DNA from: Escherichia coli
Lineage (GTDB): Bacteria; Pseudomonadota; Gammaproteobacteria; Enterobacterales; Enterobacteriaceae
Assembly: GCF_030013595.1 (NCBI RefSeq)
Contig: NZ_CP122768.1
DNA: 64,000 nt
Strand: one strand, 5' to 3'
Within the stretch, counting starts at the first letter, position 1. Each line of letters begins with the position of its first letter. The translations under genes and the position numbers were made by a program. Of the stretch, positions 42,729-44,832 are shown piece after piece. The notes beneath the pieces are model-generated. The model had not been told where the DNA came from. It made no database searches and saw only the letters and a list, made by a program, of their open reading frames with translations.

Positions 42729-44832
42729 ATGGCTAACGGTTGGACAGGTAATATATTAAGAGTCAATCTCACGACAGGAAATATTACCCTCGAAGATTCC
42801 AGTAAGTTTAAAAGTTTTGTCGGTGGTATGGGCTTCGGCTACAAAATTATGTATGACGAAGTACCGCCAGGCACGAAACCTTTCGATGAAGCGAATAAAT
42901 TAGTCTTTGCTACCGGCCCATTAACTGGATCTGGTGCCCCCTGCAGTTCTCGCGTAAATATCACCTCACTTTCTACTTTTACCAAAGGAAATTTAGTCGT
43001 CGATGCCCATATGGGGGGGCTTTTTTGCAGCGCAAATGAAATTCGCTGGCTACGACGTCATTATTATCGAAGGGAAAGCGAAATCACCGGTATGGCTGAA
43101 TATTAAAGATGACAAAGTTAGCCTGGAAAAAGCCGAATTCTTATGGGGAAAAGGGACACGCGCAACGACGGAAGAAATTTGTCGCTTGACCAGTCCGGAA
43201 ACCTGTGTGGCGGCTATTGGTCAGGCTGGGGAAAACCTTGTTCCTCTCTCTGGCATGTTGAATAGCCGTAACCACAGCGGTCGTGCAGGAACTGGCGCAA
43301 TAATGGGTTCGAAAAACCTTAAAGCGATTGCGATTGAGGGGACGAAAGGGGTCAACATTGCCGATCGTCAGGAGATGAAGAGTCTCAACGATTACATGAT
43401 GACTGAACTTATCGGTGCGAATAACAACCATGTCGTGCCAAGTACGCCGCAATCGTGGGCAGAGTATTCAGATCCCAAGTCACGTTGGACAGCACGTAAA
43501 GGGCTGTTTTGGGGGGCGGCTGAAGGTGGTCCGATTGAAACGGGGGAAATTCCGCCAGGCAATCAGAACACTGTCGGCTTTCGTACCTATAAATCCGTTT
43601 TTGACTTAGGTCCGGCGGCAGAGAAATACACAGTAAAAATGAGCGGCTGCCACTCTTGCCCGATCCGTTGTATGACCCAAATGAATATTCCTCGGGTGAA
43701 AGAGTTTGGCGTGCCCAGCACAGGTGGTAACACTTGTGTAGCCAACTTTGTCCATACCACCATCTTCCCGAACGGTCCGAAAGATTTTGAAGATAAAGAC
43801 GATGGTCGTGTGATTGGTAACCTGGTTGGTCTGAATCTGTTCGATGACTACGGGCTATGGTGTAACTACGGTCAGCTACATCGCGACTTTACCTATTGTT
43901 ACAGCAAAGGGGTGTTCAAGCGTGTTCTGCCTGCTGAAGAGTATGCGGAAATTTGCTGGGATCAACTGGAAGCGGGTGACGTTAACTTCATTAAAGATTT
44001 TTACTACCGTCTGGCGCATCGCTTGGGTGAGCTGAGTCACCTGGCTGATGGTTCATATGCTATCGCAGAACGCTGGAATTTGGGTGAAGAGTACTGGGGC
44101 TACGCGAAAAATAAACTCTGGTCGCCATTTGGCTATCCGGTTCACCATGCCAATGAAGCGTCAGCGCAGGTCGGTTCCATTGTTAACTGTATGTTCAACC
44201 GTGACTGCATGACGCATACCCATATCAACTTTATTGGTTCCGGCTTGCCATTGAAACTGCAACGTGAAGTGGCGAAAGAACTTTTTGGTTCTGAAGATGC
44301 TTACGATGAAACCAAAAACTACACGCCAATCAATGACGCAAAAATTAAATATGCTAAGTGGTCGCTGTTGCGGGTCTGTTTGCATAACGCCGTCACCCTG
44401 TGCAACTGGGTCTGGCCAATGACCGTTTCGCCGCTGAAAAGCCGTAATTACCGGGGCGATCTGGCGCTTGAAGCCAAATTCTTCAAAGCGATCACTGGCG
44501 AAGATATGACTCAGGAAAAATTAGATTTAGCTGCAGAGCGTATCTTTACGTTGCATCGCGCCTACACGGTAAAACTGATGCAAACCAAAGATATGCGTAA
44601 TGAACACGATCTTATCTGTTCCTGGGTATTCGACAAGGATCCTCAGATCCCGGTCTTTACTGAAGGTACGGACAAAATGGACCGTGACGATATGCATGCT
44701 TCGCTCACGATGTTCTACAAAGAAATGGGCTGGGACCCACAGCTTGGTTGTCCGACCCGTGAAACATTGCAGCGTCTGGGGCTGGAAGATATTGCCGCCG
44801 ATCTGGCAGCACACAATCTACTGCCTGCGTAA
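42729..44832 (+). pseudogene. ydhV: aldehyde:ferredoxin oxidoreductase-family protein YdhV, reading frame broken by a +1 shift at a G7 run
   Basis: Expected single ~700-aa ORF is split into 42645-43106 and 43003-44832 in different frames; switch point is ggggggg at 43013-43019; removing one G gives continuous ...[24 protein letters not shown]... Confidence 0.6.

Follow-up and report, generated by a model that had tools for sequence, protein, structure and literature searches.

The window analyzed here, a stretch of 64,000 nucleotides from Escherichia coli (contig NZ_CP122768.1 of RefSeq assembly GCF_030013595.1), carries the ydhYVWXUT operon, and within that operon the reading frame of ydhV is broken. 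Two open reading frames (ORFs), at 42645..43106 and 43003..44832, overlap in different frames at 43003-43106, and these coordinates, first given in a sequence-only reading of the window, were confirmed. That reading had also identified the gene as ydhV of the ydhYVWXUT operon, had placed the switch of frame at a run of G residues, and had proposed that removal of one G would restore the protein; the ORFs, the 700-amino-acid (aa) product and the identity to K-12 bear it out on each count. Direct reading of the window sequence indicated seven consecutive G residues (G7) at 43013-43019, and no other run of G or C in the 64 kb was as long as seven. The run had been described as followed directly by six T residues (T6), but a C at position 43020 separates it from the T6 run at 43021-43026. 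Homology with annotated genomes places the ydhV start codon at 42729. The frame that begins there spans 125 codons, the first 97 of which encode the native protein through ...VDAHMGG, with Gly97 kept as GGG, after which 28 out-of-frame residues (LFCSANEIRWLRRHYYRRESEITGMAEY) lead to a TAA stop codon at 43104-43106. When one G was deleted, the frame opened into a 700-aa YdhV that was identical to K-12 YdhV at 692 of 700 residues (99%).

The two pieces of the gene were compared to Pfam. The 5′ piece matched profile positions 1 to 94 of the AFOR_N domain, and the 3′ piece matched AFOR_N positions 90 to 199 together with AFOR_C. As the 5′ and 3′ pieces match two halves of one domain, they represent a split gene rather than a chance pair of ORFs. 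Consistent with a split gene, the repaired protein contained AFOR_N at residues 7 to 205 (E value of 7e-69) and AFOR_C at residues 270 to 685 (E value of 1e-47) in one polypeptide of ~700 aa, and its closest solved structures were AOR and FOR. Orthology with K-12 YdhV (b1673) is indicated both by the identity of the proteins and by the place of the gene inside ydhYVWXUT, and the flanking genes and their order were the same in MG1655 and in three other annotated genomes. The K-12 protein has the same AFOR_N plus AFOR_C architecture as the repaired window protein and is encoded in the same ydhY-V-W-X-U-T order; the window copy alone has the additional G. Relative to intact orthologues, the window allele is changed in the length of the G run with no compensating indel, and it retains half of AFOR_N before a premature stop that follows 125 codons. 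The comparison thus directly supports both the sequence change and the truncation of the domain.

The complete RefSeq genome closest to the window was that of E. coli HCP5S3_I2, and GN25 was used as the outgroup. Over ~62 kb, the window and HCP5S3_I2 differed by 39 listed single-nucleotide polymorphisms (SNPs) and by two 1-bp indels, each of which fell in a homopolymer: a gain of G at 43013 in ydhV and a loss of T at 63918 in lhr. The extra G was the sole indel within ydhV. The substitutions (15 synonymous, 17 nonsynonymous and 7 intergenic) were distributed about evenly between the two lineages and look like ordinary recent divergence. Six G residues (G6) were present at the ydhV site in HCP5S3_I2, in GN25 and in a third relative, GCA_002460785.1. 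Since both HCP5S3_I2 and GN25 are G6, the alignment directly supports G7 as the derived state.

The G6 tract itself arose in part of the E. coli population. A comparison with K-12 had been proposed as a check for six G residues, but MG1655 (L017) reads GGGTGG at the positions equivalent to window 43014-43019 (ATG GGT GGC), which is not a homopolymer, where the window lineage has ATG GGG GGC. The sequence GGGTGG was read directly in K-12 and in two other loci. A synonymous GGT-to-GGG change (T to G at the third position of Gly96) made the G6 tract. The G6 haplotype was matched at 99% or more by ~1,483 of 5,404 complete genomes (~27%), while the remaining ~73%, including K-12, BL21, HS and O157, fell below a 99% match. 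No length change at the tract was found in 60 records sampled across the ranking of complete genomes, and a 57-nucleotide (nt) probe for G7 had one exact match among all 5,404, in strain ST2747 (NZ_CP007393.1). A programmed frameshift of the prfB or dnaX type was excluded, as the extra G is missing from 5,403 of the 5,404 complete genomes and the one exception is probably an artefact.

The exception bears on whether the G7 of the window might be an error of homopolymer sequencing or assembly, in an isolate that is truly G6 and has an intact ydhV. The ST2747 record (L018:6019-6038) has the same G7 in the same codons, and its ydhV is labeled "frameshifted" by PGAP. The surrounding haplotype is different from that of the window: the two are 98.4% identical over 12 kb, and the SNPs closest to the run lie 69 bp and 31 bp away. 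The ST2747 G7 is thus an independent occurrence. Two isogenic siblings, CP007392 and CP007394, are G6; all three records derive from ~28x PacBio RS II C2 data (PMC3983296); and no record of the 609-aa product of the ST2747 allele was found in other assemblies. An artefact or a laboratory mutation is the most likely explanation of the ST2747 G7, and the site can therefore yield a spurious G7. Moreover, in a published test that compared Homopolish with Pilon on the Nanopore assembly of an O157:H7 isolate, ydhV was among four named genes that were merged or split differently once short reads had been used for polishing (PMC8528807, Table 5). The window also has another homopolymer indel that is without support, in lhr. 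Against an error, the same G6 context was free of errors in ~1,480 complete genomes, and the G7 of the window, unlike that of ST2747, was found again in other assemblies.

The exact 609-aa product of the 3′ ORF (P0001) was present in the public protein collection on 12 contigs. Four of these contigs were examined, from GCA_021649405.1, GCA_008326365.1 and the Logan assemblies of two separate runs, ERR4421134 and ERR14334243, and all four carried G7 in sequence that was 99.98 to 100% identical to the window over 5 to 22 kb. The P0001 contig of GCA_021649405.1 is 161 kb in length, and ERR4421134 is accompanied by five further similar contigs. An assembly artefact would take the form of an indel in one assembly only, whereas G7 recurs in four, and the comparison directly supports its reproducibility. 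GCA_021649405.1 and the window are not the same at 35188, and changes at 42506 and 50088 are private to GCA_008326365.1; the G7 carriers are distinct genotypes and not one strain that was resequenced. Moreover, position 50941 is C in the G7 carriers that cover it (the window, GCA_021649405.1 and GCA_008326365.1) and A in the G6 relatives GCA_002460785.1 and GCA_020301305.1, as well as in the more distant HCP5S3_I2 and GN25. Cosegregation of G7 with a SNP ~8 kb away is not expected of an assembly error. The sequence-only reading had offered a genuine frameshift and a sequencing error as alternatives; the four independent contigs and the linked SNP at 50941 uphold the former and speak against the latter, which we regard as highly improbable. 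Caution about homopolymer errors is justified for the site in general, but not for the lineage of the window.

On the same haplotype, the allele with an intact ydhV was found on 61 contigs and in 99 blocks of the collection; its product, P0016, is what the window would encode with one G fewer. One carrier of intact ydhV, GCA_002460785.1, differed from the window over 22.1 kb by two SNPs and by the extra G, which was the sole indel, and GCA_020301305.1 was another close relative with P0016. The G7 sub-lineage accounts for ~12 of the ~110 collection blocks of the clone. Because relatives that are two SNPs apart in 22 kb keep G6 and an intact gene, the putative slippage event is recent. The 5′ products of the frameshift (125 aa from 42729 and 153 aa from 42645) had no exact match in the public protein collection; gene callers likely drop a short ORF that overlaps one of 609 aa, and the missing records are not evidence against G7. 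We conclude that G7 is, with high probability, a real mutation that has been inherited by a sub-lineage of one clone.

Several observations weigh against that conclusion or narrow it. All of the support for G7 comes from assemblies, including the Logan assemblies built directly from public runs. A homopolymer frameshift that is matched in no relative lies in the window's own lhr gene, and the window assembly may hold some homopolymer errors. In addition, the window shares Lhr H1308 (Q1308H, 63561) with GCA_049544575.1 and with a 4.1-Mb contig; at 167 kb and 4.1 Mb, the contigs of both are larger than every contig reported with P0001. GCA_021649405.1, which is G7, apparently lacks an intact H1308 Lhr. 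If the H1308 genomes are G6, the G run may have changed state more than once, or recombination may have occurred. Finally, that YdhV protein is lost and that ydhWXUT are subject to polarity are consequences that we infer from the DNA.

The lesion in lhr, which is encoded on the minus strand, consists of seven T residues at 63918-63924 where HCP5S3_I2, GCA_020301305.1 and GCA_049544575.1 have eight (A8 on the coding strand, at about codons 1187 to 1189). The frame of the window gene shifts after ...VIWSGQK, and neither of its products (342 aa, and 1225 aa as reconstructed) had a record in public assemblies. The lhr frameshift could be private to the isolate or could be an assembly error. A Logan contig of the same clone, SRR10990793_56, reads TTATTTTT at this run (L020:9979-10001, equivalent to window 63918-63925), and an AAA-to-TAA change at its codon 1189 results in an 1188-aa product and a 342-aa ORF; this lesion was found on two contigs. 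Two distinct lesions at one lhr site in one clone could indicate a hotspot, selection against the C-terminal domain of Lhr, or related events.

A change of state in the G run would also be predicted if the G6/G7 tract, which is present in about a quarter of E. coli, were a reversible heritable on/off switch or a leaky one. YdhV would then be toggled or lowered rather than lost, with G7 recurring and reverting as at a contingency locus, or being partly bypassed, either when tRNA-Gly slips by +1 on G GGG GGG at the ribosome or through slippage of transcription. Suppression of +1 frameshifts by altered tRNA-Gly classically acts on G runs, and the rate of slippage climbs steeply with run length. 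Consistent with a switch, both states occur among isolates that are at most two SNPs per 22 kb apart, the sequence is such that the native M-G-G-F-F would be restored exactly by a +1 slip on GGG GGG C, and the state of the G run and Lhr H1308 are in possible four-gamete conflict. That conflict, however, rests on an indirect comparison of contig sizes, and the SNP linked to G7 in its carriers is consistent with a single origin. Seven G residues are short for efficient transcriptional slippage or true phase variation. Moreover, most E. coli, K-12 among them, lack the tract (GGGTGG), and it is therefore not a regulatory device conserved across the species. A later nonsense codon in ydhY, described below, arose in a sub-branch of the G7 carriers and fits decay better than switching. 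The ydhV tract resembles the poly-G contingency loci of Neisseria, Haemophilus and Campylobacter in that the length of a coding G tract decides the protein and both lengths are found in close relatives. It differs from them in that the tract is short (six or seven) and missing in most strains, in that G7 apparently arose once, and in that ydhV is neither a surface nor a restriction-modification gene. We consider a reversible or leaky switch very unlikely, whether the claim is made for this allele or for the tract across the species.

Instead, ydhV in the window is an ordinary, lineage-restricted slippage pseudogene with a textbook mechanism. The sequence of events begins with the synonymous substitution at Gly96, which gave part of the E. 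coli population an uninterrupted G6. Slipped-strand mispairing during replication would then have added the seventh G in one sub-lineage of one clone. Translation is predicted to leave the native frame after Gly97 and to stop at 43104-43106, which would produce a 125-aa stub with half of AFOR_N. Save for rare slippage, the catalytic subunit of the YdhYVWXUT oxidoreductase, with its pyranopterin and [4Fe-4S] cofactors, would not be made; on its domain content the stub is predicted to be nonfunctional and the enzyme activity to be lost. The ATG of the 3′ ORF (43003) is without a well-spaced Shine-Dalgarno sequence, as the nearby AAGGA ends 13 nt upstream, and its product would in any case miss the first half of AFOR_N. 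Enterobacterial slippage pseudogenes that PGAP labels "frameshifted" likewise have a mononucleotide run whose length differs by one base, stop prematurely, are otherwise almost perfectly conserved and are restricted to one lineage. The ydhV allele does not differ from them in kind, although here the run was itself made by a synonymous substitution.

The other genes of the operon, ydhY and ydhWXUT, are intact ORFs (Table 1). That ydhWXUT could still be made had been suggested on the basis of reinitiation; the intact ORFs agree with the suggestion, but reinitiation would not be needed, as ydhW has its own ATG, at 44845. This ATG, the one downstream start that was inspected, has AAGGA 9 nt upstream in a position that overlaps the ydhV stop codon. 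When ydhV was scanned for promoters, its plus strand had no sigma-70-like site that could drive ydhWXUT independently, which is a weak negative. The output of ydhWXUT is probably reduced, because translational coupling would be lost and ~1.7 kb of mRNA would be untranslated, and Rho-dependent polarity on these genes is plausible.

Table 1. Features of the ydh operon in the 64,000-nt window
Feature	Coordinates	Strand	Remarks
ydhY, ferredoxin-like small subunit, 208 aa, intact	42082..42708	+	ORF; orthologue in HCP5S3_I2 and K-12; exact protein P0018 on at least 73 contigs
ydhV pseudogene, AOR-family pyranopterin subunit	42729..44832	+	2104 nt vs 2103 nt in intact alleles
Translated ydhV frame	42729..43106	+	97 native + 28 out-of-frame residues, 125 aa; from translation and Pfam
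3′ ORF, +1 frame, 609 aa	43003..44832	+	Remaining AFOR_N and AFOR_C; product P0001
G7 homopolymer, +1 insertion site	43013..43019	+	Ancestral G6 (ATG GGG GGC; Met95-Gly96-Gly97)
T6 run, Phe98-Phe99 codons	43021..43026	+	After a single C; same size as in intact alleles
ydhW, intact	44845..45495	+	Own ATG; DNA identical to G6 relative GCA_002460785.1
ydhX, 4Fe-4S dicluster protein, intact	45559..46227	+	ORF, annotation and comparison with GCA_002460785.1
ydhU (annotated phsC), cytochrome b membrane subunit, intact	46224..47009	+	ORF, annotation and comparison with GCA_002460785.1
ydhT, intact	47013..47825	+	Annotation and comparison with GCA_002460785.1

A second lesion in the operon was found within the G7 clade. 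In GCA_008326365.1, ydhY carries W142* (TGG to TAG at window 42506; L010:731), the gene call is shortened to 141 aa with no Pfam match, and the contig is recorded in three samples. The second inactivating lesion is what would be seen if selection was relaxed once the catalytic subunit had been lost, and also if there was selection for loss of the system. Were the latter true, inactivation of the Ydh oxidoreductase would have been adaptive in the niche of the lineage. The W142* lesion would then be a second independent knockout, and an IS2 insertion in ydhV was likewise among the mutations fixed during a 1,200-day stationary-phase evolution experiment (PMC7858067). A second hit that follows loss of the catalytic subunit is, however, also what relaxed selection predicts, and the lineage offers two events only. 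Across the species, the extra G is missing from all but one complete genome and the 60 sampled records contain no indel, and ydhV has no known phenotype (PMC9103625, PMC13328260). We consider adaptive loss unlikely, if less so than a switch or a sequencing error, and the preferred reading remains that of a slippage pseudogene in one sub-lineage.

Two amino acid substitutions in the operon, YdhV G185R and YdhY R155C, were evaluated as possible decay after inactivation, and that interpretation was rejected, as both occur with intact ydhV on 61 to 73 contigs. By this distribution, both substitutions are older than the frameshift. G185R (window 43282, YdhV codon 185) changes SGGAGTGA to SGRAGTGA in the clone, and the Arg agrees with that in the AGRTGVGA motif of 9mqx_D, the best-matching solved AOR structure. 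At codon 185, it is therefore the Gly of K-12, not the Arg of the clone, that departs from 9mqx_D.

Three further differences between the window and HCP5S3_I2 lie away from ydhV. HCP5S3_I2 has an insertion of the IS5-like element ISKpn26 between ydiM and ydiL (L001:25041-26021) that is absent from the window (~25494-25507). A difference of ~56 bp was present in the ydiF-aroD intergenic region near window 21100. Window positions 1 to 1383 did not align to HCP5S3_I2, which has a phage integrase region at that location.

YdhV, which binds bis-Mo-MPT, is described as the pyranopterin subunit of an enzyme of the AOR/WOR type, Class V (Reschke et al. 2019, as cited in PMC9103625 and PMC13328260). 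Neither the substrate nor the physiological role of YdhV is known (PMC9103625, PMC13328260), and no activity assay exists (PMC9103625). The full-length protein is 77 kDa, and its operon, which is under FNR control, is expected to be expressed in anaerobic growth. Within the library searched, the G7 allele did not appear in papers mentioning ydhV, judged largely by their titles. In annotations of the lineage, ydhV should stay a pseudogene, and it should be left as it is by homology-based polishers. At the same site, a long-read assembly of low coverage has a G7 that is probably false, and the tract is thus a useful test case for homopolymer calling as well as for homology-based polishing. The overall value of the finding is modest. 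For the biology of E. coli, it shows that a silent GGT-to-GGG codon change can create a mutational liability. The G7 isolates would be natural knockouts of the catalytic subunit of the only AOR-type (bis-Mo-MPT) enzyme of the species, and together with their near-isogenic G6 relatives they would provide natural ydhV+ and ydhV- pairs for comparison.

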